From Cyanobacteria bacterium P01_H01_bin.74 (GTDB taxonomy: Bacteria > Cyanobacteriota > Vampirovibrionia > Vampirovibrionales > Vampirovibrionaceae): a stretch of 64,000 nucleotides of DNA. The stretch covers positions 1,898-65,897 of the forward strand of contig JBCDLA010000001.1 of assembly GCA_038745945.1 (NCBI GenBank), written 5' to 3'. The position numbers and the translations under genes are program-made. Below the pieces are notes generated by a model. That model was not told the DNA's origin, ran no database searches, and worked only from the letters and a program-made list of their open reading frames with translations. Shown here piece after piece: positions 6,400-62,995 of this stretch (positions within the stretch are counted from its first letter, which is position 1; every line of letters begins with the position of its first letter).

Positions 6400-6448
6400 A
6401 GATTAAAAACACAAAAGCGAGCAATTCATTTTCCATTTTGCTCGCTTT
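6400..6448 (-). terminator. Rho-independent terminator/attenuator hairpin between rpsO and pnp.
   Basis: Minus-strand RNA reads AGCGAGCAA-AAUGGAAAAUGAA-UUGCUCGCU followed by UUUUGUGUUUUU, immediately 3' of the rpsO stop. This is analogous to the E. coli rpsO-pnp intercistronic terminator/RNase III region. Confidence 0.55.
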
Positions 6449-6455
6449 AAATCAG

Positions 6456-6725: not shown

Positions 6726-6755
6726 AGGGATATACTCACTTTGTGCATTCAGTTA

Positions 6756-6785
6756 TTGTGTATTAAAACATTGTGTATTAAAACT
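6756..6785. promoter_or_regulatory. Perfect 15-bp tandem direct repeat (ttgtgtattaaaaca x2) in the rpsO 5' leader/promoter, within the divergent intergenic region.
   Basis: Seen 30-60 nt upstream of the rpsO start codon. Candidate operator or S15 autoregulatory element. Confidence 0.35.
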
Positions 6786-12661: not shown

Positions 12662-12820
12662 CCTTGAACAGTATCACAAAAGATTGTGGTGTTTTTAAAA
12701 TTAAGCAAGCCATACCAAATAAAAACGATTATAATTTAAAAGAGGGAAAATGCTTGGCCAAAACGATTTTTGTTGAGGGCTTTCATTCAAAATTTATGGG
12801 GTGAAGGCCTGAAGCAAGCA

Positions 12821-12852
12821 ATGTATCAAAAATGTGTCATAAATGTGTCAAA
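12821..12852. promoter_or_regulatory. Three direct copies of AATGTnTCA spaced 11 bp apart (one helical turn) in the divergent promoter between the HEAT-repeat gene and the GHL10 gene.
   Basis: caATGTATCAaaAATGTGTCAtAAATGTGTCAaaaaa, ending ~20 nt upstream of the ATG at 12872. Confidence 0.4.
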
Positions 12853-12871
12853 AAATTAGTTGATCAAATTC

Positions 12872-16415: not shown

Positions 16416-18656
16416 TTATAAAAACTTGCCCTGCAGGATTTCAAGGGCATGCTGTTTTGACTCTTCTTCCGCAGCAGAGAGAGCAGAACCTGCACTCGGC
16501 GGCTGGGCCAGTAAATCAGGCGGTATCTGTTCTGATTCTGGGATAGGGCCTTGCGCCTCTAGTGGATGCTTTTCAAGTCCTTGATTTTCAAGTCCTTGCT
16601 TTTCAAGTCCTTGACTTTCAGGCCCTGCTTTAACGCTTTCCTGAGGCTGTGGCTGTGTATCATAAGGGGGCGTGTGAAAAGTCTGTTTGGCTTGGTTCGG
16701 CAAATTAACTTGATTTGGTTGTTGCGGCTGCTCGGGCGTCTCATTTGGACTGGGGGGACTGGGGGGACTGTGGCTTACGATTGCTGAATCTTTAAGGGCG
16801 GAATCGAGTTTCTGGATTTCAGTGCAGTCAATCTGAACCGGATATCCCAAGACTTTTTCAGCGGCTTTTTCCAGATGCAGCATTTTATCGGGTCGGGTGA
16901 CTGTTGCCAGATTTATATGGCCCACACAGCCAACGGTCAGCTTGTTGTTGGTGTGATTTAACAACTGTGTTTGTTGTTGTAAAAGTGAGCGGTACATGCG
17001 GCTGGGAATTTGCGCGCAAATGTTTTGATAAAGCGCGGCAAAAGCGCTCTGCTTTTCCAATGGGGTTTCTGCAGGAGGATTGAGATGCAAAGTTTGCGGC
17101 TTATCTACGAGAGGAGCTGAATGCTGCTCATTATCCGGTGCTGTTGTCTGCTGGGTTGGAGGGGCTGCCTGTTTGGCTGATGGCATTGATTTTTTGAGCA
17201 AAGGCTTATCTATCTTATCCTTATCTAGCTTATCTAGAGTCTTTGAAGTCTCTAAATTCTCTAAATCTGTTTTTTCAGGTGAGACAGGCGCAGAGACAGG
17301 CTTGTAAGCTTGCGAAGAATTTTTTATTGCCGAGCCGTTTTCAGAAGCAGAAAGGCTTGGCTTTTTTTGAGCCGGTAAAGGCTGGCCAGGCATTTTTTCA
17401 AGCGGCGTACCTCGACTGTCAGTCCCTTGGTCTTGCATGTCTTGTAAAAGGGCTTCAAGCTTTTCAACGCGGGCTTGCAGGGTTTCCAACTGATAAATTT
17501 CATGCCGGTAAACCAGTTCTAATAAGCCAATTTCAAGCCACAACCCTGGGTTTTGCGTGTTTCGGATATTTCTTTCCGTTTCAGCCAGCCGGTTAAGCAA
17601 TTGAGGCAGTAAGGTTTGACTTTCAAGCAGGTCAGCCTGTTGCAAAAGCGCCTGGTAATACTCGGCTGAGAGCCCCAGTGATGGCTGCATCTTCCCAGAG
17701 CCATCGGTCTGAACAACCAGCAGGTTTCTGAAATGCTGGGTCAGATCTTTTAAAATTTGGGTGGGCTGAACCCCTTGACCAATCAGTTCCCCCAGGTGAC
17801 TGAGCAGCAATTGGCCATCCTGTTTTAAGACCGAATCGCCCAGTGCCAGCACCACGTCATCAGACAGGGCGCCTGTAAACCTCAAAATATCATCGTGCTG
17901 AATGGTTATCCCCGGTTGGGCCCGCCCCATCACGGATACCTGATCCAGCAAGCCAACGGCATCCCTTAAACCTCCCTTTGCGTGGCGGGCAATGGTGTGC
18001 AATGCTTCAGGGGAAATGGTTATTGCTTCCCAGTCGGCAATGGTGCGCAGGCGGTCTACAATTTCCTGGGTGCCAATGCGGGCAAAGTCAAAACGCTGAC
18101 ACCGGCTGACAATGGTCTGCAAGACCTTGTGCGCTTCAGTGGTCGCAAAAATAAAGATGACATTTTCAGGCGGTTCTTCCAATGTTTTAAGCAGGGCATT
18201 AAAGGCCTGCGTGGTCAGCATATGGACTTCATCAATGATATAAACCTTATACCGTCCAGAAATGGGACGATACTGGCAGCTTTCAATCAGTTCCCGGGCA
18301 TCATTGACCCCGTTATTGCTGGCAGCATCAAACTCAATAATATCCAAGGCCTGACCTTCTGCAATGCCTGTGCAAGAAGCGCACTGCAGACATGGCTCTG
18401 GTGAAGCGCCTTGTTCACAATTGAGAGATTTTGCAAAAATCCGGGCTGCAGAAGTTTTACCTGTCCCTCTGGGGCCGCAAAACAGGTAGGCATGAACCAC
18501 TTTTTGCAGAGCAATGGCATTGCACAATGTCTGGGTAATGATGGATTGACCGCAAAGGTCCACAAAAGTTTTTGGGCGATACTTTCGGTACAGCGGAATG
18601 TAACGCTCAATTTTGGTTTTATTGTCTTGCTCAGTGGCATGCATTGGTTGGGGCAA
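16416..18656 (-). CDS. dnaX: DNA polymerase III subunits tau/gamma, with an unusually long low-complexity C-terminal region.
   Basis: Walker A GPRGTGKTS, a CxxC Zn module, and AAA+/clamp-loader domains I-III. 746 aa. Internal repeats QGLEK, DKLDK and SPP. Confidence 0.9.
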   Translation of the reverse strand: MPQPMHATEQDNKTKIERYIPLYRKYRPKTFVDLCGQSIITQTLCNAIALQKVVHAYLFCGPRGTGKTSAARIFAKSLNCEQGASPEPCLQCASCTGIAEGQALDIIEFDAASNNGVNDARELIESCQYRPISGRYKVYIIDEVHMLTTQAFNALLKTLEEPPENVIFIFATTEAHKVLQTIVSRCQRFDFARIGTQEIVDRLRTIADWEAITISPEALHTIARHAKGGLRDAVGLLDQVSVMGRAQPGITIQHDDILRFTGALSDDVVLALGDSVLKQDGQLLLSHLGELIGQGVQPTQILKDLTQHFRNLLVVQTDGSGKMQPSLGLSAEYYQALLQQADLLESQTLLPQLLNRLAETERNIRNTQNPGLWLEIGLLELVYRHEIYQLETLQARVEKLEALLQDMQDQGTDSRGTPLEKMPGQPLPAQKKPSLSASENGSAIKNSSQAYKPVSAPVSPEKTDLENLETSKTLDKLDKDKIDKPLLKKSMPSAKQAAPPTQQTTAPDNEQHSAPLVDKPQTLHLNPPAETPLEKQSAFAALYQNICAQIPSRMYRSLLQQQTQLLNHTNNKLTVGCVGHINLATVTRPDKMLHLEKAAEKVLGYPVQIDCTEIQKLDSALKDSAIVSHSPPSPPSPNETPEQPQQPNQVNLPNQAKQTFHTPPYDTQPQPQESVKAGPESQGLEKQGLENQGLEKHPLEAQGPIPESEQIPPDLLAQPPSAGSALSAAEEESKQHALEILQGKFL
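16568..16625. repeat. 15-nt x3.5 in-frame tandem repeat (ttttcaagtccttga) in the dnaX 3' region, encoding QGLEK repeats.
   Basis: Seen in sequence. Additional 6-9-nt repeats lie at ~17205-17275 (DKLDKDKIDK) and ~16753-16772 (SPPSPPSP). Confidence 0.7.
17361..17367 (-). promoter_or_regulatory. dnaX: In-frame slippery heptamer A_AAA_AAG (codons Q430-K431-K432) in dnaX; candidate -1 programmed frameshift site producing a gamma-like short form.
   Basis: Codons CAA AAA AAG sit at aa 430-432, almost exactly the E. coli tau/gamma shift position (Lys430). The -1 frame reads GCC AAG CCT TTC TGC TTC TGA, i.e. six codons then a stop. Confidence 0.5.
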
Positions 18657-18794
18657 TCACTCCACGATGAACAACATCAGTTTTTTTGTTCAGAAATTTG
18701 TTTAGAAATTTTTTCATAAACAAGTTCAATAATTGGTGGCAAGCCGCTTATAATTCAACCGCTTGCTTTCAGTATCAGGTATTGGTCCTAACCC

Positions 18795-21003: not shown

Positions 21004-21256
21004 CATTTCGCTTAGCAGTAGTAGGAATTTGTGAAGACCTGTTAAAGTGAAAACGGGTTAAACACGCGAAAAGCTTTTCCCAAACAGTTTTAAAGCAGTA
21101 TTTGCATCATCTGCCAGTATTTGTATCATCTGAATGAAGCTCAGATTTAGTTCACATCAGTTTTATACCGCGTCACGTTAGCCATCAAACAGCATATTAC
21201 AAGTCTGTAACATGTAAGAAATGACGGCGCGCACAGCATCGCCAACATCAGACCGC

Positions 21257-34444: not shown

Positions 34445-34538
34445 TACAAACGCTTCAAATGCAAATAATAGTTTAACGCAAACATTTGTTTCAAGCAGTG
34501 TGTTTTGTACAATAAACTATTAAAACAAGGAAATAACA

Positions 34539-35651
34539 ATGAGATCAGTCACTGTGTCTGAAAAGCCCTTGCCAGATAATATTGAAAAACCAGAAGCGTT
34601 CGAAAAAACCGCTGTTCAAACAATAATTGATCTGGTTGAAACCCTCCGCAATCCGGTTTCAGGATGCCCGTGGGACTTAAAGCAAACCCATCAAAGCTTG
34701 CGGAAATACCTGCTGGAAGAAAGTTATGAAACCCTGGAAGCCATCGACAACCTGCCATCACAAGACGTGTTTGACCAGTGCAGCCGTGATCCTGGAACCC
34801 AGGCAGAAATAGCGTCAGCCTATGGCCACCTTAAAGAAGAACTGGGCGATGTATTGCTTCAGGTCTTGCTGCACAGCCAGATTGCCAAAGACAACGGCCA
34901 GTTCTCATTTGAAACGGTTTGTGCAGGACTTGCTGAAAAAATGATACGCCGGCACCCCCATGTCTTTTCGTCTAAAGCCCAGATGTCAGGATCTTCGCTT
35001 TCTGCGGACCATGTTGCTGAAAACTGGGCGAAGATTAAGCAGCAAGAAAAACGCGCCAAACAGAACCAGTCCACTCAGAGTCCACAAGAGATACCCAATA
35101 GCCCGTTCAGGAGCATTATGGATGAGATTGGCAGTGCACAACCGGGCCTCAGTCAAGCCTATGCGGTCAGTAAAAAAGCCGTATCTGTTGGGTTTAAATG
35201 GCCCAATTTTGATTCGCTGTGGGCTTGCGTGATGAGCGAATTCGATGAATTCCGGCTTGAGGCCGAGCAATTGCATCAGCTTGAAAATCAACCAGACCCA
35301 GCACAAGATGATGCTCAGGGCTTAGAGAACCCAAAAGCCCTGCAAAAAGGAGCCTTGCAAAAAGAAAAAGAGGCCCTGAAAGAAAAGCTTGAAGAAGAGT
35401 TCGGCGATATACTGTTTGCAACAGTCAATTTGGCCCGAGAATTTGACATATCGCCTGAAATTGCCCTCAGTCGTGCAACCCGAAAATTTAAAACCCGTTT
35501 CGCTGAAATGGAACGCGCGATTGCAGAAAAAAATATGATCGATCAGTCTAAGGAAGACAGTCAGGAAAAACAAATGGCTGCAATGAAACAAATTGACTTT
35601 GAAACCTGGGACCAGTACTGGCGTGAAGCAAAGACACATACGGCAAAATAA
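34539..35651 (+). CDS. mazG: MazG-family nucleoside triphosphate pyrophosphohydrolase (tandem MazG domains).
   Basis: EELGDVLLQVLLHSQIA and EEFGDILFATVNLAR EExxD/E motifs. Confidence 0.8.
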   Translation: MRSVTVSEKPLPDNIEKPEAFEKTAVQTIIDLVETLRNPVSGCPWDLKQTHQSLRKYLLEESYETLEAIDNLPSQDVFDQCSRDPGTQAEIASAYGHLKEELGDVLLQVLLHSQIAKDNGQFSFETVCAGLAEKMIRRHPHVFSSKAQMSGSSLSADHVAENWAKIKQQEKRAKQNQSTQSPQEIPNSPFRSIMDEIGSAQPGLSQAYAVSKKAVSVGFKWPNFDSLWACVMSEFDEFRLEAEQLHQLENQPDPAQDDAQGLENPKALQKGALQKEKEALKEKLEEEFGDILFATVNLAREFDISPEIALSRATRKFKTRFAEMERAIAEKNMIDQSKEDSQEKQMAAMKQIDFETWDQYWREAKTHTAK

Positions 35652-49823: not shown

Positions 49824-49859
49824 ACCTGTTAAAAGAATAAAAAAGGACAAAACCGCCCC

Positions 49860-52800
49860 ATGTGGATTGCTGACGTTTGTGTCAAACGCCCTGTGCTTGC
49901 AACAGTCATCTCCATTTTAATGGTCTTGTTTGGTGCAGTCAGCTACACGTTTTTAACCGTCAGAGAATACCCCGATATTGACCCGCCGATTGTCTCGGTC
50001 AGCACAGTCTATACGGGGGCCAATGCCGGGGTTATGGAAACAACAGTCACAGAGCGCCTGGAAGAAGAGCTGATCGGTATAGAAGGCGTTCGCAGTATGA
50101 CCTCCGTCAGTAATGAGGGCAACAGCAATGTGGTGCTTGAGTTTGAACTGGAACGCGATGTCAATGTTGCGGCTCAAGACGTGCGAGATCGGGTGAACCG
50201 GGCGCGCAACAATTTGCCCAACGATGTTGAAGAGCCTATTATAACCAAACAGGACTCGGATGCTAGTGCGATTATCTGGATGGGTCTGGCGGGTGAAAAC
50301 TACACGCCCTTGCAAATTACAGACTATGCCGATCGCTACATTAAAAACGAGCTGCAAACCGTGGATGGGGTTTCACAAATTATTATTGGCGGTGCTCGCG
50401 AGTACTCCATGCGCTTGTGGCTGGATCCGCAAAAAATGGCATCACGAAAAATTTCTGTGACCGATGTTGAACGGGCCTTGCAAAATAAAAATGTAGAAGT
50501 GCCTTCAGGCCGTGTGGAAGGCAAATTGCGGGAATTTACAATTAAGACCATCGGTGAACTGAAAAGCCCGGAAGCGTTTAACCGGCTGATTATTAAAGCG
50601 GTTAACGGCAAGAATATCTATCTGTCAGACATTGGCCGGGCTGAAATCGGCGCCCGAGATACCCGCTCTTTTGTTCGTTTAAACGGCATGCCCGCTGTGG
50701 GCCTTGGTATTGTCAAGCAATCAAAAGCCAACACGCTGGATGTTGCCAAAGCCATTAAGAAAAAAGTGCCTGACATTATTAAACGCCTGCCCCCCGGTAT
50801 GACACTGCGGCCCGCTTACGACAGTTCAATTTACATTCAAAAATCGATTGATGAAGTGGTTGAATCGTTAATTGTCGCTTTTTTTCTGGTAGTAGTGGTG
50901 GTGTACTTGTTTCTGCAGAGTGCCCGGGCAACGTTCATTCCGGCCATCTCGATTCCCATTTCGCTGATTGCCACATTCAGCATTATGATTCTGCTGGATT
51001 ATTCCATTAACACCATTACCCTGCTGGGGATGACACTGGCCATTGGCCTGGTTGTTGACGATACAATTGTGGTGCTCGAAAATATCTACCGACGCATTGA
51101 AAAAGGGGAAACCCCCAAAGAAGCTGCCATTAAGGGCACACGCGAAATTGGCTTTGCCATTATTGCGACCACCGCTGTGCTTGTGGCAGTGTTTCTGCCC
51201 ATTTTGTTTCTTGGGGGCATTTTGGGACGGATTCTCAAAGAGTTTGCCGTGGTTATGGCGGGCTCGGTTCTGATTTCCGGCTTTGTGTCGCTTAGTCTAA
51301 CACCGATGCTGTGTGCCAAACTGCTTAAAGCCAAGCAGCCATCCGACGAGGCCAGACAAAACCGGTGGGGAATACAGGCCCAATTGGAAAAGATTTTAGA
51401 GGCGAGCAACCGCACGATTGAAAACAGCCGACAAAAATTCAGCAGCAGCTTGTCCCGGTTAATTAATAAAAAGCGGACAGTGACGACTGTGGTTCTTGTT
51501 CTGGCTTTTATTTCAATGGGGCTGTATGTTGTCTTGCCCCGTGAATTCTTGCCCACCGAAGATCAGGGCAATATTTACACCATTATTACAGCCCCTGAAG
51601 GATCAACGGTTGACTACACCGACATCTCAATCCGCAAGGCCGAGCAGGTTTTAAAAGCGTTGCCAGAATTAAAAACCGTGTTCTCGGTCCTGGGCTTAAC
51701 CAATGGGCAGACCAATTCTGGAATTCTGTTCAGTCACCTGGTTGACGAGCGAAGTAGGAAAGCCCAAACCATTGTGAGTGATCTGCTGCCCAAAATGCTG
51801 GCGATTCCTGAGGCACTTGTCTTTCCTATCACTCCGCCATCCAGCCCAACCGCATCATTTGGCAAGCCCATTGAAATGGCCATTCAGTCGACTGGCAGCA
51901 TTGAAGATCTCAATACGGTGATGCAGATTGTAAAAAACCGGGCAGAAAAAGAAATATTTGGGCTAATTAACCTGGACACCGACTTAAAACTGAATAAGCC
52001 CCAGGTTGAAATTGAAGTGGATCGTGAAAAAGCAGCAGCCCTTGGGGTTTCTGTGCGGGATGTTGCCCGTACGATGCAGGTCATGTTTGGCGGCCTGGAT
52101 TTGTCAAGCTTTCAGCTGCGTGGCAAGCGCTACGATGTAATGGTACAGGCGGAAACCCCCATGCGGCTGTCGCCCAGTCAGTTAGACGGACTTTACGTTG
52201 GCAGCGATAAAGGCACCGTCATTCCCTTAACCAGTGTGATTAACCGTACCGAATCGGTTGCCCCCAATGCGTTAAACCACTACAACCGGTTTCGCTCCAT
52301 AACACTCAGTGGGGCACTGTTGCCCATTCCTGGCATCAGTCTGGGCAGCGTGCTTGAACAAATGCAAGCCATTGCCACAGAAGAACTGCAACCGGGCATG
52401 AAAATTGCCTGGAAAGGCGAAGCCCGGGAATTTTTTGAAGCCAACACAGCCACCTTTTTTGCCTTTGCGTTGGCTTTGTTGATTGTTTTTCTGGTTTTAG
52501 CCGCACAATTTGAAAGCTTTATTGACCCTGTTATTGTGATTTTAACCGTACCGCTGGCCATGGCGGGGGCGTTGTTTACCCTGTTTGTTCTGTCGTATGT
52601 GCCCGTGCTGATTAAGCTTATTCCGGTGTTTGCCAACTGGCAGACCATTACCTACGGGCTCAATATTTACAGCCAAATTGGCCTGGTTTTGCTGGTGGGA
52701 CTGGTCACCAAAAACGGCATTCTGATTGTTGAATTTGCCAATCAAATCCGCGAAGATCACCCTGAGAAAAGTATCCGAGCGGCAGTCCTGGAAGCTGCGC

Positions 52801-53015
52801 AAGTTCGTTTCAGACCCATTGTTATGACATCCATTGCCACCATTTTTGGGGCCATCCCCATTGCAGTTGGATTGGGCTCCGGCATTGATGGGCGAAAGCC
52901 GATGGGCGCCGTTATTATTGGCGGGATGTTTTTTGCCACATTCTTGACCCTGTATGTCATTCCCATGGCATACGAGTGGGTGAAAGCCAGAAGAGAAAGA
53001 CAAGTGCAGGGTTAA
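49860..53015 (+). CDS. RND multidrug efflux transporter (AcrB/HAE1-like), 12 TM.
   Basis: 1051 aa with the typical AcrB N-terminus and two large periplasmic loops. Confidence 0.9.
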   Translation: MWIADVCVKRPVLATVISILMVLFGAVSYTFLTVREYPDIDPPIVSVSTVYTGANAGVMETTVTERLEEELIGIEGVRSMTSVSNEGNSNVVLEFELERDVNVAAQDVRDRVNRARNNLPNDVEEPIITKQDSDASAIIWMGLAGENYTPLQITDYADRYIKNELQTVDGVSQIIIGGAREYSMRLWLDPQKMASRKISVTDVERALQNKNVEVPSGRVEGKLREFTIKTIGELKSPEAFNRLIIKAVNGKNIYLSDIGRAEIGARDTRSFVRLNGMPAVGLGIVKQSKANTLDVAKAIKKKVPDIIKRLPPGMTLRPAYDSSIYIQKSIDEVVESLIVAFFLVVVVVYLFLQSARATFIPAISIPISLIATFSIMILLDYSINTITLLGMTLAIGLVVDDTIVVLENIYRRIEKGETPKEAAIKGTREIGFAIIATTAVLVAVFLPILFLGGILGRILKEFAVVMAGSVLISGFVSLSLTPMLCAKLLKAKQPSDEARQNRWGIQAQLEKILEASNRTIENSRQKFSSSLSRLINKKRTVTTVVLVLAFISMGLYVVLPREFLPTEDQGNIYTIITAPEGSTVDYTDISIRKAEQVLKALPELKTVFSVLGLTNGQTNSGILFSHLVDERSRKAQTIVSDLLPKMLAIPEALVFPITPPSSPTASFGKPIEMAIQSTGSIEDLNTVMQIVKNRAEKEIFGLINLDTDLKLNKPQVEIEVDREKAAALGVSVRDVARTMQVMFGGLDLSSFQLRGKRYDVMVQAETPMRLSPSQLDGLYVGSDKGTVIPLTSVINRTESVAPNALNHYNRFRSITLSGALLPIPGISLGSVLEQMQAIATEELQPGMKIAWKGEAREFFEANTATFFAFALALLIVFLVLAAQFESFIDPVIVILTVPLAMAGALFTLFVLSYVPVLIKLIPVFANWQTITYGLNIYSQIGLVLLVGLVTKNGILIVEFANQIREDHPEKSIRAAVLEAAQVRFRPIVMTSIATIFGAIPIAVGLGSGIDGRKPMGAVIIGGMFFATFLTLYVIPMAYEWVKARRERQVQG

Positions 53016-53054: not shown

Positions 53055-53131
53055 CCTGTTTATTTTTTCCAGTCCAACTATTTTTTCCAACCCTCTTATT
53101 TTTGCCAACCCTTTTATTTTTGCCAACCCCA
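53055..53131. repeat. Tandem 18-nt repeats (ttatttttgccaaccc-like, 3-4 copies) spanning the stop codon of the DUF1353 gene; each copy re-encodes GWQK/GWKK plus a stop.
   Basis: On the minus strand: GGTTGGCAAAAATAA AAG GGTTGGCAAAAATAA GAG GGTTGGAAAAAATAG TTG GACTGGAAAAAATAA. The first unit is the real gene end (...WGWQK*). Confidence 0.6.
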
Positions 53132-53563
53132 CCGGCCAAAAAGCCGAACAGCCTTAAACATGGCCCACCGCTTTTTGGGACCCACACCGCTTTCTTTCAT
53201 CACGCGCATAAACAGCCGGTCACATTGCTTGCGGGTCCAGACCACATGACTAATATTTTCCCAGGTGTCTGGTGGAATTAATTTGTAATGATAGTCTGTT
53301 GCCCGTGTGCCTTTGGGCTTGTTGGTGAAGTACAGGAAATCATGCAAAACAGCTGCCCCGCGGTGCAACCCGTCGGGCAGAATGCCAAAAACTGACCACA
53401 CCCAGCGTGGTACACTCGCAATATCGGTTTCAAAGCCCGTGGGCACAATTAATTTATAACAGGTATTGTTTTTGGCCACCCACTCATACTGGTAGTCTTC
53501 GGTTAGCACAAACGTGCGATCAGAAAGCGGATCCAGCTGGGGCCAAATGATAGGAAAAGTCAT
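53114..53563 (-). CDS. DUF1353-family protein.
   Basis: FETDIASVPRWVW...GAAVLHDFLY matches the DUF1353 signature (F.TDGASIPR...HD.LY). Confidence 0.6.
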   Translation of the reverse strand: MTFPIIWPQLDPLSDRTFVLTEDYQYEWVAKNNTCYKLIVPTGFETDIASVPRWVWSVFGILPDGLHRGAAVLHDFLYFTNKPKGTRATDYHYKLIPPDTWENISHVVWTRKQCDRLFMRVMKESGVGPKKRWAMFKAVRLFGRWGWQK

Positions 53564-53612
53564 ATGAAACTCGCATCAATAAAATACACAATATTTAAAA
53601 AATGGCTGGCAA

Positions 53613-55571
53613 TTAAAAGGCATTAACCGGCAAACTGGGGCGATCAAAGAAATGATTCAACTCACGCACAGAAATGGTGTGGGCAATGGGGCGCCCGTGC
53701 GGACAGGTCCATGGCAGTACTGAATCCAGCCAGCCTGTGATCACCTGTGTCATGGCTTCCTGGCTTAATAAATCACCCGCCCGAACAGCGGCATGACAGG
53801 CCAGTGTTGCAATTAACAAATCAGTATCCAGTGCCATACTTCCGGTTTCTTCCAGTTGCGCTATGAGGTTTTCAAACAAACCCCCATGGGTAAACATTTT
53901 ATCACGGCCCACAAAAACCAAGGGCACCCCGCAAAGACTCACCCGAGACTTTTCAATGGTATACAAAAATCCCAGTTTGGCAAACTGGGGCTGATACTGG
54001 GTTAACAAGTCCTGCTGGGTGGGGGACAGCAACAACGGGACACTGGCAATTAAGTGCTGAATGGCTGGGGTTTCTGCTGAGAAATTGCGCGACAATTGCT
54101 CAAAAATCATCCGCTCGCTGGCAATGTGCTGATCAACCACCATTAAGCCCTGCGGTGTTTCCAAGAGAATATACGTGTTGAACAACTGATTCAGCACTTT
54201 AAACGGCTGGGTTTTTACGGAATTCTCTTGCTGGTTAAGCGTTTCAGCAGGAACTGGCTCAGTATCAGAATGAGCGCTTAAAGGCCCTGGCTGCTGTGCG
54301 GGTTCATAAAGGGCAAGGGCGCCTTGTACGGCATCTGCCTGTACATCATGTACAGCAGCAGCATCTTTTGAATAGCCATAGCCCTGCTGAAAAGAAGAGT
54401 GACCTGCCGATGAGAACCTTGCCGGTAAGAGGCCTTGTGGCTGAGATGCGAATTCAGTGGATTTTAATGCCTCTGGCGATACTGTTAAATGGTCTGGAGG
54501 ACTGTCTTGTTCTCTGTTTAGCGGGGCTTGGCCGGTTGGGCTAGGGTCAAGAATCTGGGTGCCTGCGGCAATTAAAGCCTCACGAATACCCGCTTTGACA
54601 AAAGAAAAAATGGTATTGGCTTCCGCATAGCGGACTTCGCGCTTGGCCGGGTGCACGTTAATATCCACTTGGGTGGGGGGAAGGATTAAAAATAAAACAC
54701 TGAACGGGTAGCGCCCGTGGGGTAATAGTGACTCATACGCCACTTCGGTTGCCTTTTGTAGGACAAGGCATTTGACTGCACGGTTGTTGACAAAATTGAC
54801 CATCCACCGGCGGCTGCTTTTCATGATACCCGGTGCAGACACAAAGCCCGTTACAAAAAAACCAAAAGAAGCATCATCGTATGCTACCGGTATTAACGGC
54901 AAATCCTGCTGGTTGCGTTTGTAGACAATGTCCAGCACCGATTTTAAATCGGTTGCCCCCGCGGTATTCAGTACCGTTTTGTCATTTATGATTAAATGAA
55001 TTTGTACAGCAGGGTTTGCAAGCGCCAACAATTGCACGGTTTCCTCAATGTGGGCCAACTCGGTTTGGGGACGCTTTAGAAACTTCAGCCGGGCCGGTGT
55101 GTTGTAAAACAGATCCTCAACCGTCATAATGGTGCCCACAGCACAGCCCACATCCGTCAGGACTGTCTCACCGGAAGGCTTGACAGAAACCTGCGTGCCT
55201 TGATGCGCCTCCTGGGTTCGGGTCTGGCATGTTAAATGAGAAATGGCGGCGATACTGGCCAGTGCCTCTCCTCGAAAGCCCAGCGTGGTAATGTTATCCA
55301 AATCGTCTGCGGCTTTTATTTTGCTGGTGGCATGGTTTAAAAAAGCAAGCGCGGCATTTTCAGGCGTCATACCATACCCGTTGTCTGCAATACGGCAGTT
55401 GCGTCCAGCATTGCTGATGATAATCTCAACTCGAGTGGCCCCGGCATCAATGGCATTCTCCAGCAGTTCTTTTACCACAGACGCTGGGCGCTCTATGACT
55501 TCACCTGCCGCAATGCGGTTGACCAGGTGCGCTGGCAAGACCTGAATTTTAGACTGTTCAGTGGCAATCAT
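53613..55571 (-). CDS. mutL: DNA mismatch repair protein MutL.
   Basis: GHKL ATPase N-terminus (ELLENAIDAGA, DNGYGM, GFRGEAL), long linker, C-terminal dimerisation domain. Confidence 0.9.
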   Translation of the reverse strand: MIATEQSKIQVLPAHLVNRIAAGEVIERPASVVKELLENAIDAGATRVEIIISNAGRNCRIADNGYGMTPENAALAFLNHATSKIKAADDLDNITTLGFRGEALASIAAISHLTCQTRTQEAHQGTQVSVKPSGETVLTDVGCAVGTIMTVEDLFYNTPARLKFLKRPQTELAHIEETVQLLALANPAVQIHLIINDKTVLNTAGATDLKSVLDIVYKRNQQDLPLIPVAYDDASFGFFVTGFVSAPGIMKSSRRWMVNFVNNRAVKCLVLQKATEVAYESLLPHGRYPFSVLFLILPPTQVDINVHPAKREVRYAEANTIFSFVKAGIREALIAAGTQILDPSPTGQAPLNREQDSPPDHLTVSPEALKSTEFASQPQGLLPARFSSAGHSSFQQGYGYSKDAAAVHDVQADAVQGALALYEPAQQPGPLSAHSDTEPVPAETLNQQENSVKTQPFKVLNQLFNTYILLETPQGLMVVDQHIASERMIFEQLSRNFSAETPAIQHLIASVPLLLSPTQQDLLTQYQPQFAKLGFLYTIEKSRVSLCGVPLVFVGRDKMFTHGGLFENLIAQLEETGSMALDTDLLIATLACHAAVRAGDLLSQEAMTQVITGWLDSVLPWTCPHGRPIAHTISVRELNHFFDRPSLPVNAF

Positions 55572-55641
55572 TAATGTAAGGCATCATTTAATAAAGCTTG
55601 GTTTAATAAAACTTGGTGTAATAAAGCATAAGAAAAACGGC

Positions 55642-56625
55642 TTATGGCTGCAGGGCGCGTAATTCTTGATAAAGTTCTTGTTCCCGCGGGGTTAACGTTT
55701 TAGGAATTATGCCTTTAAGCCTCACCAGCAAATCCCCTGGATTTTTACCCAATTTATCAGGCAGGCCTTGCCCTTTTAAGCGCAGGATTGTGCCAGGCTG
55801 CGTTCCTTGCGGGATGGTCAGGGTTAATGGCTTTCCAGCCAATGTTGAAATTGACCAGTCGCCTCCCAGAGCTAAGACCGGAACCGGCACGGCGGCATTG
55901 CAGACAAGGACATCATCTTCCACCGAAAAAACCGGATGGCTGCGGTACTGCACGACCAACATCAAATCACCCTGTCGACTTCCTGCTCGGCGGCCTTCTC
56001 CCCCCAGACGGATTTTTTGTCCGGGCCTTACCCCCTTGGGAATTTTAACAGTCATTCGTTTGTTTGACAGGGTTAAAATTTCTTTTTGCGTGCCTGTAAA
56101 CACGTCCTCTAAATCCAGCGGCAAGGGCTGTTCAATATCAAGATTTTCTGGCGGGCGTTGTTGACGTTGTTGCTGAGCCCGGTGGTTTGATTGTTGATAG
56201 CCTTGTCGTTGTCCAGCTTGCCCAGAATAACCAGATAAAATATCTTCTAAGTTGATCTGCCCACCCGAAAACCCAGCCCCACCGGCCTGTCCTGCAGCAG
56301 CCCCAAACAGCATTTCAAAAAAGTTAGAAAAGCCCCCCATATTGCCAAACTGGCCCCCCATATTCACCCCGTCGAAGCCGGGTGGTGGGTTAAAGTTTTG
56401 GCCCTGGCGCCAGTTTGCGCCCAGACTATCATAGAGTTGTCGCTTTTTGGGATCCCCCAGAGCTTCGTATGCTTCGTTCAGTTCTTTGAAGGCTTCTCCC
56501 CCATCTGGGTTCACATCTGGATGAAGCTTTCTGGCTTTTTTGCGGTAAGCACTCTTAATTTCAGCGTCGCTTGCACTGCGCGAAACGCCTAAAATTTTGT
56601 AATAGTCTTTGTATTTGACGCTCAT
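55642..56625 (-). CDS. cbpA: DnaJ-class curved-DNA-binding protein CbpA-like (J domain + G/F region + CTDs, no Zn finger).
   Basis: J domain DYYKILGVSRSASDAEIKSAYRKKARKLHPDVNP with HPD. G/F-rich region. 327 aa. Confidence 0.8.
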   Translation of the reverse strand: MSVKYKDYYKILGVSRSASDAEIKSAYRKKARKLHPDVNPDGGEAFKELNEAYEALGDPKKRQLYDSLGANWRQGQNFNPPPGFDGVNMGGQFGNMGGFSNFFEMLFGAAAGQAGGAGFSGGQINLEDILSGYSGQAGQRQGYQQSNHRAQQQRQQRPPENLDIEQPLPLDLEDVFTGTQKEILTLSNKRMTVKIPKGVRPGQKIRLGGEGRRAGSRQGDLMLVVQYRSHPVFSVEDDVLVCNAAVPVPVLALGGDWSISTLAGKPLTLTIPQGTQPGTILRLKGQGLPDKLGKNPGDLLVRLKGIIPKTLTPREQELYQELRALQP

Positions 56626-57333
56626 GGTATTGGGTACTGAAAAAGGCTTAATTTTTTTAAATACTGATTAAACAATAAGCAAACTGGGACGCTAGCTCAG
56701 AATTAAACAATTAATCTATCGTAAAAACACCACAACAGCATAGGGATAATATTATAACAGTTCATTTTTGGGCGGTTTAACGCCACAGATTTTTAGACAA
56801 CGTTATCCTGGAATTTTATACCCGGGAAACTCTGAAAGGTATCCATAGTGCACTAATACCCTGCAACAGTACTCATAGTACAACAATCACGATAGCTCAT
56901 CGGCTGTAGAGTATCTGCTACCCTGTATATTACTCTAAATTATTTCATGTAACTTCAATGGGGTCTAAAGTTTTGAGTTTTTTGTAAGCTTTTGCTAATT
57001 TTGTAGGGTCGCCTAATTTTCATCAACGTTGTCATACAAACAACGATGCCTTTAGTTTGGTTAAAACACCCAAAAAAATAAGAACAAGGACTCAATTGTG
57101 AGATACATCCCCTCAATTTTTAATGGCCCAATTTTTTTATCCCGAAAAAAAACAAACCTTACCTTACCTTCCCGTCAATCCTTTCTTCACGTTCTAAACA
57201 AAATTCACGAAATACGCCGTTAAATCAACCCAAACAGAACCCTTCAATTTCAACCAGACTTGCGCCAGTCCTCAATCTATGGACTAACTTTAAAAAAACA
57301 GCCAGTAGCCGTGTTTATGACTTAAACAGGACC

Positions 57334-57927
57334 TTGCGCACAAACTGGTCTGCCTTGCATTCCGGAACAAAACGACGCCTCAAGCCGATTGTTTGGGGGA
57401 CAGCCAAGCATATAAAAAATGCCTCGGTGAAAACGGTCACTTTATTGCAAATAAGTTTATTGCCAGCTGTATTTATGGTGTCTGCTTACAATGCCGTTAA
57501 ATTGCCTCGATTGCAAGATCAAATTGCAAATCAAGCTAACGAAATAGCCGGTCTTCATCGTGTCGCGGCCTCAAAAAATGCTTTTACACTAAAGTTGTTT
57601 GCCGCTGGTGCAGGACTATCCACTATACTTACAGGCATTTCAGTGTTCGCTCTTAAAAATCAATTGAACGATGTAAAAACCGATATAAAAAATGATCTTG
57701 AATCAGTTTTAGGCTTTATGATAAGAAATACAGAGAATCTTGTTTCAACAGTTTGTGCAAACCCTACTCCCATTCTTAATAAACAACATAATCCAAGTGG
57801 GCCAGTTCTCCCAAACGCCTCCTTAAAATATGGTTTAGAGCCTCGACTTTTCAAATTTCTTGGGATCAAACCCCATAAACCAGGACTGGGCAATCTCTTG
57901 AACAAATTAGGATTACCAAAAAAATAA
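57334..57927 (+). CDS. Hypothetical membrane-associated protein (2 predicted TM). Uncertain gene.
   Basis: ORF within an AT-rich islet; TTG start in the track. Convergent with family member 3. Confidence 0.25.
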   Translation: MRTNWSALHSGTKRRLKPIVWGTAKHIKNASVKTVTLLQISLLPAVFMVSAYNAVKLPRLQDQIANQANEIAGLHRVAASKNAFTLKLFAAGAGLSTILTGISVFALKNQLNDVKTDIKNDLESVLGFMIRNTENLVSTVCANPTPILNKQHNPSGPVLPNASLKYGLEPRLFKFLGIKPHKPGLGNLLNKLGLPKK

Positions 57928-58201
57928 AGCCAATTGCCATCCAATTTGTAAGCTTATCAGCCGCTACACAGAATTTTATTTCCTTTCTAATTCTAACCTG
58001 GATTTCTCATCGCCAAGTTGTTACTGAGAAAAGATAAAAAGACGTAATAATTAAAATTGAGTTTTTCTTGACAAATCTTGATAAACTGGAAAAAAAGATT
58101 TCGATGAATTGCGATTATAAGTATACCTTTTTTTATAGAGTTGATGATGTTTCGCTTGATTTTTCATCAGAATCTTAAAATAGCTTCGTTTCTTTAGGTC
58201 C

Positions 58202-58753
58202 TTACCATTTTGTAGTAGCAGGATTACGCTCAGTTGCATCCAGTATATTTTGTTCTTCACCCACTGTTATGTTTTTGAGCCGCTCAAACCGATCTGTTAA
58301 ATCGCCCGTTTTTGACTGTTCCATCTCTCTTTCTTCTTTTCTTTTGTTATAAAAGTCATCAGCTTTATTATTAGCCTCAGGACTGAATAAATATTGCACC
58401 CTTTCGGGATTATATAATTTGGGGTAACCAACATAGCCGTCTCTTTCAGGCCCATCAGCATCAAAATTAACATTAGGGTTATTTCTTCGGACTGCTGCTT
58501 GTCTTTCTTCCCTTAATTTAGCTTCTTGATCGGCTTGGGTTAACCGTTCAAGGATTTCAGGATTATTTAATTTTTCCACTCTTGGTCCATTATAATTAGC
58601 ACCTTGTTCCAGATATTTAGCGTAAGCAACATCTTTTGATCTATCATATACTTCCCAATCAGTATCTTCTGAATCTTTTGGAGGCTTATCCCCCCCGAAG
58701 CGAAGAGTCGAATCAGTGTTATAGGAATTATTACCAGGGAAAAAGGAAACCAT
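58202..58753 (-). CDS. Hydrophilic N/D/E/Y/P-rich 183-aa protein with no signal peptide. Tentative member 3 of the paralogous family.
   Basis: N-terminal FFPGNNSYNTDSTLRFGGD resembles the GNNNLRFGVD block of ORF 30015..30584. YPKLYNPERVQYLFS resembles FLNPYNPKPDLPPFS. ATG start with a moderate RBS, in an AT-rich islet. Confidence 0.4.
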   Translation of the reverse strand: MVSFFPGNNSYNTDSTLRFGGDKPPKDSEDTDWEVYDRSKDVAYAKYLEQGANYNGPRVEKLNNPEILERLTQADQEAKLREERQAAVRRNNPNVNFDADGPERDGYVGYPKLYNPERVQYLFSPEANNKADDFYNKRKEEREMEQSKTGDLTDRFERLKNITVGEEQNILDATERNPATTKW

Positions 58754-58880
58754 TTTAAATCTTTCTATTGTTTTTTAAGTGCTGTGTGAACTAAGTGATG
58801 CGTGAACATATTACTAATGAATTGATAAAACCATTCCCATAAACGCATGTCAATTCAGTTTTGTGCGCAATCCAACAGAA

Positions 58881-60314
58881 TTATGCAGGCACAGCGCCAG
58901 GGTATTTCCCGCTAAAGCACGCTGTACACGGGTCACTAAACCCTGAAAGCGACACCATATTCTCCACAGAAAGATACATCAGTGTGGTAACACCCAAAAA
59001 TTGCCGGATGGCTTCGGTATCGGGCTGCTGGTTGGCAATCAGCTCCGCGGGCTGGGACATGTCAATGCCGTAAAAGCACGGGTGCGTCACTTTGGCCGAA
59101 GACACCCGCAGATGAATTTCTTTCACCCCGCAAGACCACAGCATTCTCACCAGATTTCGGCTGGTATTGCCCCGCACAATCGAGTCATCCACCACAACAA
59201 TGCGCTTGCCGTAAAGCACGTCCTTCAGCGGGTTCAGCTTCAACTGAATACCCTTTTCCCGCAGCTCATGGCTGGGGTTAATAAATGTTCGGCCCACGTA
59301 GCGGTTTTTAATCAAGCCTTCGGCAAAGGGAATGCCTGAAGCCCGGCTGTAGCCAATGGCTGCCACTGTCCCAGAATCAGGTACTGGGATAACAATATCG
59401 GCTTCCACAGGCGGCGATATTTCAGCCAGCTTTTTGCCCAGATTCATCCGGTACTGATAGACCGACTGCTGGTTAATCGTGCTGTCTGGGCGGGCAAAAT
59501 AGACCAATTCAAACACACAGAGCTTTTCTTCTTTGGCCAGGGCCTGAGATTCAATAAATGCGGAAGTGGTCACCCCATTCCCTTGCAACTGCAGGCTGGA
59601 ATAATAATCATCAATGCGCGCACTGACAATTTCGCCTGGCAGCAAGTCACGCTCAAATGTGGCGCCCACAATATCCAGTGCTGCCGTTTCTGAAGCAAAA
59701 ACCAGTGCCCCTGTTCGGGTTCGCCCCATGCACAAAGGCCGTAAACCCAGCGGATCCCGGGCTGCAATGAGGGTGTCACCAGTTGCCACCACAATTGAAA
59801 ACGCCCCTTCACAAGTGCTTAACGCTTTCTGAACAGCTTCTTCAACGTCGCAGCCTTCGGTATTCAGCATAAAATTGATGGTCATGGCCATCACATGGCT
59901 GTCGCTGTCACCATGCCCCAGATAGCCGCGTTCTTTCAGAAAGACTGTTAACTCGTTGGTATTGGTTAAATTGCCGTTATGGGCCAGTGTTAAGGCCCCT
60001 TGATTGGTCCGAACCACCACGGGTTGGGCATTGCCCAGGCTGCTTGTGCCAGTCGTTGAGTACCGGGTGTGGCCAATGCCCACCTGGCCGGTCATTTGAT
60101 CGAGAATAGTCTGGTTAAACACTTGATTGACCAGACCCATTTCTTTCTGCAAGCGCAGCTGATGGTTATCGTACACGGCCATGCCGCAGCTTTCTTGCCC
60201 GCGGTGCTGCAAGGCATACAAACCAAAAAAAATGGTATGCCCCAACCCCGAGGAATTGCGGTCCATAATGCCAAATACACCACAGGCTTCGTTTAAAGAC
60301 TTATAATGAATCAT
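58881..60314 (-). CDS. purF: Amidophosphoribosyltransferase.
   Basis: CGVFGI N-terminal nucleophile, PRTase motif (VVVDDSIVRGNT), Fe-S Cys residues. Confidence 0.9.
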   Translation of the reverse strand: MIHYKSLNEACGVFGIMDRNSSGLGHTIFFGLYALQHRGQESCGMAVYDNHQLRLQKEMGLVNQVFNQTILDQMTGQVGIGHTRYSTTGTSSLGNAQPVVVRTNQGALTLAHNGNLTNTNELTVFLKERGYLGHGDSDSHVMAMTINFMLNTEGCDVEEAVQKALSTCEGAFSIVVATGDTLIAARDPLGLRPLCMGRTRTGALVFASETAALDIVGATFERDLLPGEIVSARIDDYYSSLQLQGNGVTTSAFIESQALAKEEKLCVFELVYFARPDSTINQQSVYQYRMNLGKKLAEISPPVEADIVIPVPDSGTVAAIGYSRASGIPFAEGLIKNRYVGRTFINPSHELREKGIQLKLNPLKDVLYGKRIVVVDDSIVRGNTSRNLVRMLWSCGVKEIHLRVSSAKVTHPCFYGIDMSQPAELIANQQPDTEAIRQFLGVTTLMYLSVENMVSLSGFSDPCTACFSGKYPGAVPA

Positions 60315-60505
60315 AATTGTTTAAAGGCTGTTGTCTTCCGAATATTGCGTTGTTGCATTAATGGCCATCATTATTATTAAAATGCAATCATACAGATGAA
60401 AAAAATTGACGACTGAAAAACTGAATACGGAAAAAAGACAAGCTTAAAAATTTAATAAGCAATTAGAGATTGAACAAGCAAGCGGTCGTGATACAGGCAC
60501 ATGTC

Positions 60506-62995
60506 TTATCTTGCATGAACCGACAGCCACTGCTGTTTAATGGCATGCAGATCAATGGGAGGGACTTCGGCAGTCAATTTCAGGGCAAAGTGATCATTGG
60601 TTGTTTCACCGAGACGGGCAAAAGACAACCCTGCCTTCTCGGCAGCCTGCCAGATAGGTTCTTCTTGCCCAGCCTCGTAAGCAATAATATAACTGCAAGC
60701 AGTTTCACCAAACCATTTCAAATCAAGTCGCTGGTTTTTCCCAGAATTGCTGCGCTCAGCCAGCAGTGATGACAACTGGTTTTGGCTGCAGTCCAGGCCC
60801 GCTTCATTAAAGAAAGCCATTTCCAGCAAGGTCGGCAAAACGCCACCCAGAGATACATCCTGAACAGCCACCACTTGCCGGGCATCAATCAGCGACAAGA
60901 GCAGTGCAATGGCTTTGGCCTCATAGGCCACATTGACCTCTGGCGGGGCTCCTTCAACGTTGCCTGTACGAAGCTTTAAATACTCTGTACTGCCCAGAAC
61001 CGGGTTAAAATGCCCAATCAGCGCCAGCGATACAAGCGTTTCTTTGGGGGCGGGCAGTGCCGCACCCATGATTTGGGAGTCATCGTTAATCAGGCCGGCC
61101 ATGCCAATGGTTGGTGTTGGGTAAATGGCTTCATCCCCATATTCGTTATAGAGGCTGACATTTCCGCTAATCACCGGTGTATTCAGACCCAGACAGGCAT
61201 CTTTTATGCCCTGAACGGCATAATGCAGCTGATGATAAATTTCTGACCTTTCAGGGTTCCCAAAATTCAGGTTGTCAGTGACTGCCAGTGGCTTAGCACC
61301 CGTACATGCCAGGTTTCTGGCTGCTTCAGTAACGGCATACAGGCTGCCTTTGTAAGGATCAGTGTGAACATACCGCGGGTTACAGTCAACGGTCAAGCTT
61401 AAGGCTTTTCCGCTAAAGCGGCCGTCTTTTTGCCGCAACCGAATCACACCAGCCGTTAAGTGCGCTGAATCAAGCACAGTAGCGTTTTGAACGTGGCGGT
61501 CGTATTGCTGGATGACACCCACCGGTTTTGCAATGTTTTGAGACCGCATCATTTTTTCAAGGAACTGGCGCAGCTCTTGGGGGTTAATATCTGGCAGACC
61601 CTTTAAAACATCTTTCTCCCGACGGGCTTTTGCAGACGGGGGCTCATCGGGCATTAATTGCCGGTGATATGATGGGGCCAGGTCCGTCAGCAGCTTGGCT
61701 GGTACACAAGCCACTTGTTCATTGTGGTGCCGAATGTCTATGGTACAATCTGCCGTAATTTCACCAATAACAGCAGAAGCAACCCCCCACTTGGTAAAAA
61801 TATCTTGGATAGCTTGGGTTTTGCCACGTTCAATCACCAGCAGCATTCGTTCTTGTGACTCAGAAAGCAGGTATTCATGGGGCTGCATTCCAGGCTCTCG
61901 TGCTGGGACCGCATCCAGATTAATCTGAATGCCAACATTGCCCTTTGCAGCCATTTCTGCACTGGAACTGGTTAAGCCTGCGGCCCCCATATCCTGGGCT
62001 GCTACAACATGGCCGGTTGCAAAGGCTTCTAAACAGGATTCAATCAGCAGCTTTTCAGCAAAGGGGTCACCCACCTGCACAGCCGGACGATCTGCCGTGC
62101 TGTTTTCATCCAGCGCCTTGCTGGCAAAGGCTGCCCCGCCCATGCCGTCTTTTCCGGTTGCAGATCCCACATACAAGACTGGATTTCCCACCCCGTAAGC
62201 CTTGGAAGAAATATCATTGCGGTCATAAAGAATGCCAACCGCCATCGCATTCACCAAGGGATTGCCATTGTAGCAGTCTTCAAAAAAGACATCTCCGGCA
62301 ATGGTTGGCACGCCAACACAGTTGCCATAGTGGGCAATGCCATTCACTGCCCGAGAAAACAAGTAGCGGTTGTGCTTTTCTGTATAGTTAGTTTCTGTAT
62401 AGTTAGTTTCTGTATAGTTAGTTTCTGTATAGTTAGTTTCTGTATAGTTAGTTTCTGTATAATTAGTTTCTGAACAACTATTGTTTTCTGTGTCTTTGTT
62501 TTCTAGATTTGGAGAAGCCGCTACTGGTCCAAAGCGCAATGCATTCAAGTTGGCAATGGGCCGGGCATTCATTGTAAAAATATCTCTGAGTATCCCACCT
62601 ACACCAGTTGCAGCCCCCTGAAACGGCTCCACAGCGGTGGGATGGTTGTGGCTTTCAATTTTAAAAGCAATTTGTATGCCATCCCCAACATCAACAATGC
62701 CAGCATTTTCGCCTGGGCCCGCAACAACACAATCGCCTGTGCTCGGAAGCTGCTTTAGCAAGTGCCGTGAGTTTTTATAACAGCAGTGCTCGCTCCACAA
62801 CACACTGAACATGGCCAGCTCGTTAAAATTGGGCGGACGGTTTAAGTTGGCCTTAATTTTGCCGTACTCAGATTGCAGCAGGTTAAACTGTTTCAACAGG
62901 CCTTCCAGCTGATCATCAGGAATCTCAAAGTTTTTCCGGCAATCAGCGTCAGGCACTGGCTCTGATTTTAATGCTTGGGTGGGGTCAGGCGACAT
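60506..62995 (-). CDS. purL: Phosphoribosylformylglycinamidine synthase subunit PurL (FGAM synthase II) carrying a ~60-aa low-complexity insertion.
   Basis: PurM-like tandem domains (e.g. ...GAATGVGGILRDIF..., ...DNLNFGNPE...). 829 aa versus the typical ~740. Confidence 0.9.
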   Translation of the reverse strand: MSPDPTQALKSEPVPDADCRKNFEIPDDQLEGLLKQFNLLQSEYGKIKANLNRPPNFNELAMFSVLWSEHCCYKNSRHLLKQLPSTGDCVVAGPGENAGIVDVGDGIQIAFKIESHNHPTAVEPFQGAATGVGGILRDIFTMNARPIANLNALRFGPVAASPNLENKDTENNSCSETNYTETNYTETNYTETNYTETNYTETNYTEKHNRYLFSRAVNGIAHYGNCVGVPTIAGDVFFEDCYNGNPLVNAMAVGILYDRNDISSKAYGVGNPVLYVGSATGKDGMGGAAFASKALDENSTADRPAVQVGDPFAEKLLIESCLEAFATGHVVAAQDMGAAGLTSSSAEMAAKGNVGIQINLDAVPAREPGMQPHEYLLSESQERMLLVIERGKTQAIQDIFTKWGVASAVIGEITADCTIDIRHHNEQVACVPAKLLTDLAPSYHRQLMPDEPPSAKARREKDVLKGLPDINPQELRQFLEKMMRSQNIAKPVGVIQQYDRHVQNATVLDSAHLTAGVIRLRQKDGRFSGKALSLTVDCNPRYVHTDPYKGSLYAVTEAARNLACTGAKPLAVTDNLNFGNPERSEIYHQLHYAVQGIKDACLGLNTPVISGNVSLYNEYGDEAIYPTPTIGMAGLINDDSQIMGAALPAPKETLVSLALIGHFNPVLGSTEYLKLRTGNVEGAPPEVNVAYEAKAIALLLSLIDARQVVAVQDVSLGGVLPTLLEMAFFNEAGLDCSQNQLSSLLAERSNSGKNQRLDLKWFGETACSYIIAYEAGQEEPIWQAAEKAGLSFARLGETTNDHFALKLTAEVPPIDLHAIKQQWLSVHAR
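62377..62478. repeat. 15-nt x ~6.5 perfect in-frame tandem repeat (gtttctgtatagtta) inside purL, encoding (TNYTE)n.
   Basis: Seen directly. The protein shows SETNYTETNYTETNYTETNYTETNYTETNYTEKHN. Confidence 0.85.

Follow-up and report, generated by a model that had tools for sequence, protein, structure and literature searches.

A probably young in-frame 15-nt tandem array in the purL gene of a vampirovibrionian bacterium

The window analysed here is a 64,000-nt stretch of the metagenome-assembled genome (MAG) of Cyanobacteria bacterium P01_H01_bin.74, a member of the Vampirovibrionia (contig JBCDLA010000001.1, positions 1,898 to 65,897). It contains purL, encoding subunit II of phosphoribosylformylglycinamidine (FGAM) synthase, and an array of 15-nt units lying in frame within this gene is our main subject. 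Two other genes in the window also carry in-frame arrays: dnaX, encoding DNA polymerase III gamma/tau, and a gene for a pyridoxal phosphate (PLP) decarboxylase of the Orn/Lys/Arg family. Repeats of 15 nt in these three genes had been proposed in a first-pass annotation made from the sequence alone, and all of them were found by Tandem Repeats Finder (TRF). The coordinates are shown in Table 1.

TRF describes the purL array as having a period of 15, 6.4 copies, 98% matches and a score of 185; among 60 dinucleotide shuffles of the window the maximum score has a mean of 48 and never exceeds 69. The full units occupy 62378-62467 and read ACT AAC/T TAT ACA GAA, giving six copies of the pentapeptide TNYTE at about residues 176-206 of PurL. 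On the coding strand the layout is TCA GAA / ACT AAT TAT ACA GAA / (ACT AAC TAT ACA GAA) x5 / AAG CAC, so that the 5'-most unit carries a single synonymous substitution (AAT for AAC) and the other five are identical; the 6.5 perfect copies counted at first are therefore about right in number, although not all of them are perfect. When the unit was sought with up to two mismatches there were six occurrences in the window, against 0.11 expected, all inside the array; none was found outside it anywhere in the 64 kb.

The host gene is intact, as had been claimed. The array, its period divisible by three, is in frame within an uninterrupted 829-aa open reading frame (ORF) on the minus strand, which scores 876 bits against NCBIfam model NF002290 (cut-off 648) and 795 bits against TIGR01736. 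A Pfam scan (E<=0.01) returns AIRS, AIRS_C and FGAR-AT_linker only. The AlphaFold2 model, built from a 27-sequence alignment, has a predicted template modelling score (pTM) of 0.87; its best Foldseek match is Thermus PurL (3VIU), with a TM score of 0.93 normalised to the target, and the family-invariant columns of the alignment are all kept.

Relative to 3VIU, phmmer places query residues 159-205 opposite chain residues 129-131, an insertion of about 46 aa rather than the approximately 60 aa first estimated. Residues 163-199 are modelled as coil with a predicted local distance difference test (pLDDT) score below 50, between a strand (145-155) and a helix (201-227). The loop between the motifs NARPIA and YGNCVGVP has 42-77 residues of unrelated polar sequence in about 100 orthologues, and in the window protein it has 88, making this the longest and the sole one with a tandem repeat. 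The array site is thus predicted to be a disordered surface loop of PurL, the length of which varies among members of the Vampirovibrionia/Melainabacteria clade. Because the loop is disordered and freely length-variable, (TNYTE)6 is probably tolerated and close to neutral.

Comparison with orthologues agrees with the proposal that the insertions are lineage-specific: none of the 119 other PurL orthologues has a TNYTE-type repeat. Peptide repeats of any kind occur in two of 120 PurL homologues, and a substantial one only in the window protein. The closest PurL sequences, 65-66% identical, are Vampirovibrio, Vampirovibrionales and Melainabacteria entries, and the cluster to which the window PurL belongs has one member. 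A phmmer search with the 48-aa insertion against 1.84 billion representatives recovered only unrelated satellite-like ORFs of the (ELNWT)n, (ELNYT)n and (EANWT)n types, a likeness that is compositional only, and we rejected homology of the inserted peptide. An intein or other mobile protein insertion was also rejected, as the PurL insertion is 46 aa (inteins exceed 130 aa) and has no Hint or endonuclease domain match. The pentapeptide-repeat family PF00805 was rejected as well, there being no Pfam match (E<=0.01), no A(D/N)LXX consensus and a predicted coil.

PurL has a second segment of low confidence (pLDDT <50), GGAAFASKALDENSTADRPAVQ, at residues 287-306 (window ~62078-62137). Its position corresponds to that of the mobile catalytic loop investigated in the Salmonella enzyme, deletion mutants of which (6JT7 and 6JT8) are among the fold-search matches; this segment is unrelated to the repeat.

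The history of the purL array is partly legible in its sequence and flanks. The identity of five units at every synonymous site indicates that the expansion is recent. Just upstream are the in-frame sequences NSCSE, NKDTE and SPNLE, which appear to be decayed copies and so suggest that the loop records an older round of duplication; in-frame matches of 10/15 to the unit stand at -15 and -33 nt from the array, and the rest of the 2311 purL positions give at most 9/15. The first unit is bordered by the microhomology CAGAAA, repeated at 15-nt spacing (tCAGAAAct...aCAGAAAag). In long PurL loops of other lineages, cryptic periodicity amounts to a weak 15-nt self-match (73%) in one orthologue (P0031) and is not found in another (P0040).

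From these features we infer a slippage mechanism. The 6-nt microhomology, its copies 15 nt apart, is of a kind that commonly starts slipped-strand duplication and would have seeded the first 15-nt duplication, and slipped-strand mispairing, or unequal exchange between copies, would then have multiplied the unit head-to-tail. The loop would lengthen by such rounds of duplication followed by point-mutational decay, and this process, starting from microhomology, could account for the range of 42-88 residues seen in PurL loops across the clade.

An adaptive origin would read the same tract differently, with (TNYTE)6 giving PurL an array of modification or binding sites, a solubility tag or a regulatory tether. 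Perfect conservation of the units would also be expected under purifying selection on a recently favoured tract, the PurL site repeatedly gains polar low-complexity sequence in other lineages, and Thr and Tyr are potential phospho-acceptors. Moreover, ETNYT in each unit fits, six consecutive times, the sequon D/E-X-N-X-S/T, which is the extended bacterial N-glycosylation sequon. PurL is cytoplasmic, however, and sequon-dependent glycosylation machinery is periplasmic, so the fit is probably a coincidence. Identity at synonymous sites points to recency and not to selection, no orthologue has the tract, it is predicted to be disordered, and the only matches to the peptide among the 1.84 billion representatives are satellite-derived ORFs such as (ELNWT)n. 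We consider an adaptive role quite improbable.

The reality of the array was examined in a second assembly, the Logan contigs of run SRR22824304 (k=31). Over window positions 1-6736 and 54855-62406 the Logan contigs are 100% identical to the window with no gaps; the decarboxylase array and two intergenic 15-nt arrays are reproduced, and the DnaX protein is also identical. Logan contig L087 stops at 62406, exactly 30 nt (two units, or k-1) into the purL array. Such a break is that of a tandem cycle in a k=31 de Bruijn graph and implies that the reads contain at least about three units. In metagenome contigs of the Joint Genome Institute (JGI) there were no matches to an exact dimer of the unit or to a 33-mer anchored in the flank.

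That the array, or its copy number, was made or distorted by short-read metagenome assembly is an explanation the first-pass annotation had itself raised. At 96 nt the array exceeds typical k-mers, and de Bruijn methods resolve arrays properly only with k larger than the repeat and otherwise tend to collapse them (PMC6868369). In addition, the full-length PurL was not found in the Logan gene index, and the Logan contig breaks within the array. The break at k-1 nt is, however, what a true cycle gives, whereas two units or fewer would let the graph pass through; assemblers usually collapse tandem arrays and do not expand them (PMC6868369); a substitution sets the edge unit apart, and the flanks consist of unique sequence; and the decarboxylase and dnaX arrays are identical from the second assembler. 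An artefact is thus very improbable and the purL array is real, its copy number of six being that of the MAG assembly.

The perfect 15 x 2 repeat at 6755 lies 19 nt past the end of Logan contig L086, which stops at window position 6736 and at its other end reaches 1204 nt beyond the window start. It appears that tandem arrays break up assemblies of this organism made with a short k.

Table 1. Host genes and 15-nt and related arrays of the window (strand "." denotes intergenic features).
Feature	Coordinates	Strand	Basis
purL, FGAM synthase subunit II, 829 aa	60506-62995	-	ORF, NCBIfam, fold
Whole PurL insertion relative to Thermus PurL, aa 159-205	62381-62521	-	phmmer to 3VIU
purL array, six 15-nt units (TNYTE) and a partial unit	62377-62472	-	TRF, codon layout
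Putative decayed in-frame copies SPNLE (8/15), NKDTE (10/15), N, NSCSE (10/15)	62468-62515	-	identity scan
dnaX, DNA polymerase III gamma/tau, 746-aa ORF (742 aa as annotated)	16416-18656	-	NCBIfam
dnaX array QGLEK/QGLEN/QGLEK, C-terminal tail	16567-16631	-	TRF 15 nt x 3.4, 91%
dnaX array SPP, C-terminal tail	16747-16770	-	TRF 9 nt x 2.7, 100%
dnaX array (L)DKLDKDKIDK, linker after domain III	17205-17234	-	TRF 15 nt x 2.0, 93%
Orn/Lys/Arg-family PLP decarboxylase, 493-aa ORF (491 aa as annotated)	2488-3969	-	Pfam
Decarboxylase array DIEKI/DIEKI/DVEKT (IEKID), inter-domain linker	2718-2761	-	TRF 15 nt x 2.9, 89%
Weak array KALQKGALQKE in MazG-domain ORF (34524-35651)	35336-35364	+	TRF 15 nt x 1.9, score 51
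Intergenic array	694-736	.	TRF 15 nt x 2.9; identical in Logan L086
Intergenic perfect array, divergent promoter region	6755-6784	.	TRF 15 nt x 2.0
Intergenic array, dnaJ-like/mutL spacer	55587-55627	.	TRF 15 nt x 2.7

The dnaX product matches TIGR02397 with 431 bits and NF004046 with 487 bits, and its arrays all fall in alignment columns of 0-0.27 identity among 59 orthologues. Columns of the DKLDK stretch have 0% occupancy in 59 of 59 orthologues, again a lineage-specific insertion, and identity across the QGLEK array, which TRF scores also as 30 nt x 2.2, is 0.02. The SPP and QGLEK arrays both lie in the tail, a stretch of low identity that separates the conserved C-terminal domain from the last 20 residues, which are again conserved. 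In the decarboxylase, Pfam domains OKR_DC_1 (aa 7-320, 206 bits) and OKR_DC_1_C (aa 425-482) are separated by a linker that is 36-83 aa long and unalignable among 70 orthologues, and the array is in this linker. One orthologue, P0165 (43% identical), has a six-copy pentapeptide repeat of its own in the same linker (QSNFK/KSKFK; (KFKKS)n), and the linker would thus seem to have been hit by 15-nt-period expansion in an unrelated lineage too. Among 120 orthologues of each protein, peptide repeats are present in two of PurL, two of the decarboxylase and six of DnaX; only this MAG has all three.

As judged from the alignments, the purL, dnaX and decarboxylase arrays all occupy pre-existing hypervariable, unconstrained loops or linkers, which is probably the main reason why these genes tolerate them. 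Each array has its own unit, and a common motif or dispersed element behind them was rejected. The first-pass annotation took all of the arrays to be near-perfect and recent; this holds for purL, whereas the dnaX and decarboxylase arrays, 88-91% identical and of about three copies, look older or decaying. They could be older products of the slippage process in equally unconstrained linkers.

Taking these observations together, we hold with good confidence that the purL array is a young in-frame minisatellite that arose by ordinary slippage in a permissive loop. Several points weigh against this. No structural promoter of slippage is evident: in single-strand DNA folds of both strands the hairpin propensity of the array gave z values of 0.44 and 0.23 relative to shuffles, and hairpin-promoted slippage was rejected, the array folding no more stably than they do. 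The exact purL copy number comes from one MAG assembly, with the 96-nt array longer than common k-mer sizes, and Logan was probably built from the MAG's own reads, making it an independent assembler and not independent data. The lineage is known from a single genome. As regards the abundance of arrays considered below, the window was flagged for its repeats, which introduces ascertainment bias into the enrichment statistics; the enrichment is drawn from 64 kb against a background of purL neighbourhoods; and some cyanobacterial loci are denser overall in arrays.

The background consisted of 1.42 Mb in 80 real bacterial purL neighbourhoods, which are not random genome samples; they come from diverse bacteria, with at most 47% identity among the matches listed, and loci of Vampirovibrionia relatives were obtained one by one as a separate set. 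Per 64 kb, the window has 17 arrays of score >=50 and the background 4.9 (0.4 expected from the 60 dinucleotide shuffles); of those with a unit that is a multiple of three there are 10 and 2.3, respectively. Arrays of period 15 number eight in the window, against 0.99 in the background and 0.18 in shuffles, and arrays of period 16 number four against 0.32; the commonest background array period is 12. Period 15 accounts for 8 of 25 window arrays and 22 of 236 background arrays (Fisher p=0.003). Each third of the window is enriched for arrays, and about half of those scoring >=40 lie in the approximately 10% of the window that is non-coding. Peptide repeats number three in 19,061 aa in the window, all of period 5, and 16 in 440,227 aa in the background, one of them of period 5. 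Seven loci of Vampirovibrionia relatives (~114 kb) have no period-15 arrays, and their arrays of score >=50 comprise one 12-nt array, a 170-nt repeat and a 75-nt repeat only. The array density of the window is matched by 3 of the 60 background loci of at least 15 kb, all of a filamentous or pleurocapsalean cyanobacterial type (Nostoc/Xenococcaceae). The unusual genome-wide propensity originally proposed was thus extrapolated from 64 kb; the window is indeed rich in arrays relative to relatives and background, with three of the 60 loci denser. By these counts, the excess of ~15-nt duplications over relatives would be the only mildly unusual aspect of the locus.

This excess suggests that, compared with its relatives, the lineage either undergoes more duplication or fixes the products more often, with a bias to ~15-nt units in coding and intergenic DNA alike; within genes, only multiples of three would survive. 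We infer that the bias would extend through the genome. A stronger explanation is that a lineage-specific mutational mechanism favours ~15-nt units genome-wide in place of generic slippage, a candidate being weak lagging-strand flap processing that leaves short duplications bounded by microhomology. The excess of periods 15 and 16 in both coding and intergenic DNA, the period of 5 in 3/3 window peptide repeats against 1/16 in the background, the relatives without such arrays and the microhomology at the array border are all consistent with it. The numbers are small, however, and the period-5 test was made post hoc; for arrays of two copies the TRF score threshold is biased to periods >=13, from which frame selection would then pick 15 in genes; and no repair-gene defect is seen, mutL, the sole repair gene in view, looking intact. 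We know of no bacterial mechanism with a 15-nt step. Such a mechanism therefore seems unlikely, and we are similarly doubtful of its broader form, in which a process making ~15-nt duplications throughout the genome, in coding linkers as well as in intergenic spacers such as the one directly upstream of mutL, continually lengthens disordered loops of essential proteins and the purL array is its newest, polymorphic product.

Further arrays lie between genes. In the 70-nt spacer 55572-55641, between the dnaJ-like stop and the mutL start, the array CCAAGCTTTATTAAA (coding strand) fills most of the length; no consensus sigma-70-like promoter or terminator was found in this spacer. The mutL gene itself (53613-55571, minus strand) looks intact: it retains its ATPase motifs as well as DQHIASERMIFE and CPHGRP, the motifs of the endonuclease. 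A change in array length here could alter mutL translation or coupling. A 12-nt x 3 array (18685-18720) is immediately upstream of the dnaX start, and it and a period-19 array at 21096-21132 have units of their own. An 18-nt x 3.9 array, TTATTTTTGCCAACCCTA (84%, 53060-53129), lies between convergent genes of the AcrB family (49833-53015, plus strand) and of DUF1353 (53114-53575, minus strand). An 11-nt x 3.2 direct repeat, AATGTGTCAAA, at 12820-12854 stops 5 nt before a 1174-aa GHL10-domain ORF (12860-16384), and the related CTGTGTCA(G/A)ATTTG x 2 is found at 6241-6268, just upstream of the pnp start. The TGTGTCA core common to both, with a phasing of ~11-14 nt, resembles response-regulator direct-repeat binding sites, although this assignment is speculative.

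Phase variation classically acts on tandem repeats and, with one array directly upstream of mutL, the arrays could be taken for contingency loci that serve as on/off switches of purL, dnaX or the decarboxylase. The coding units are all divisible by three, however, so that no frame shift is possible (intragenic arrays with at least 2.6 copies have periods of 9, 15 or 30), and the hosts are core metabolic and replication genes, not surface or restriction genes. We regard this function as extremely improbable. Coding arrays of bacteria are mostly multiples of three (PMC1853098).

If the purL array is a young minisatellite, it is a clean, datable case of length gain in the surface loops of conserved enzymes, a 15-nt duplication expanding and then decaying to low-complexity sequence. 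In practice, short-read assemblies of this organism are likely to break at the purL locus and to err in its copy number, and the locus would become a candidate length marker only with further genomes of the lineage. Should the 15-nt bias prove genome-wide, it would point to something unusual in how this uncultured relative of predatory bacteria replicates or repairs its DNA; if not, the case is an ordinary one.

Tandem repeats lying in frame inside genes form a recognised class in bacteria (PMC1853098; PMC6868369; PMC12817950), with an in-frame bias reported in Mycobacterium tuberculosis (PMC12817950). The in-frame variable-number tandem repeats (VNTRs), such as the Burkholderia pseudomallei loci used in multilocus VNTR analysis (MLVA) and the pe/ppe genes of M. 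tuberculosis, have, like the purL array, near-identical head-to-tail units with lengths that are multiples of three, an ORF that survives and an origin attributed to slipped-strand mispairing. They differ in being defined by copy-number variation among strains, where here there is one genome, and in lying mostly in surface, virulence and PE/PPE genes, whereas here the hosts are core enzymes and the site is a loop in a protein of purine biosynthesis.

Another known case is the GCTGGC x3 repeat of mutL in Salmonella and E. coli, an in-frame housekeeping repeat whose copy number changes by slipped-strand mispairing (PMC2955026). It resembles the purL array in being a short in-frame repeat inside a housekeeping gene, with a unit of 6 nt instead of 15 nt. 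The mutL repeat is in the ATP-lid, where losing one unit inactivates MutL and works as a mutator switch, whereas the purL, dnaX and decarboxylase arrays are expected to be phenotypically silent.

In Plasmodium falciparum, low-complexity and repeat insertions are found in loops of conserved housekeeping proteins. The likeness is in polar, disordered, lineage-specific surface-loop insertions that expand and then decay; the Plasmodium insertions, however, are eukaryotic, extremely AT-rich and Asn-dominated, and those described here belong to a bacterium of 45% GC and consist of discrete 15-nt units.

Two further comparisons concern repeats known from cyanobacteria. The pentapeptide repeat proteins (PF00805), common in cyanobacteria, share the five-residue period, but form a right-handed quadrilateral beta-helix and are ancient structural repeats, whereas TNYTE has only six copies, is predicted to be disordered coil and is identical at the DNA level, as expected of recent duplication. 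Short tandemly repeated repetitive (STRR) sequences are 7-nt, intergenic and make some cyanobacterial genomes rich in short tandem arrays. Nostoc, Anabaena and Xenococcaceae loci are among the densest comparators, and a peak at 7 in the period spectrum of the background is absent from the window; STRR heptanucleotide repeats were rejected, no period-7 array of score >=40 being present in the window. Window units are instead of ~15 nt, half of them lying inside genes and in frame. Among these known systems, the purL case is set apart only by its host genes, its organism, its unit size and its readable history of duplication and decay.

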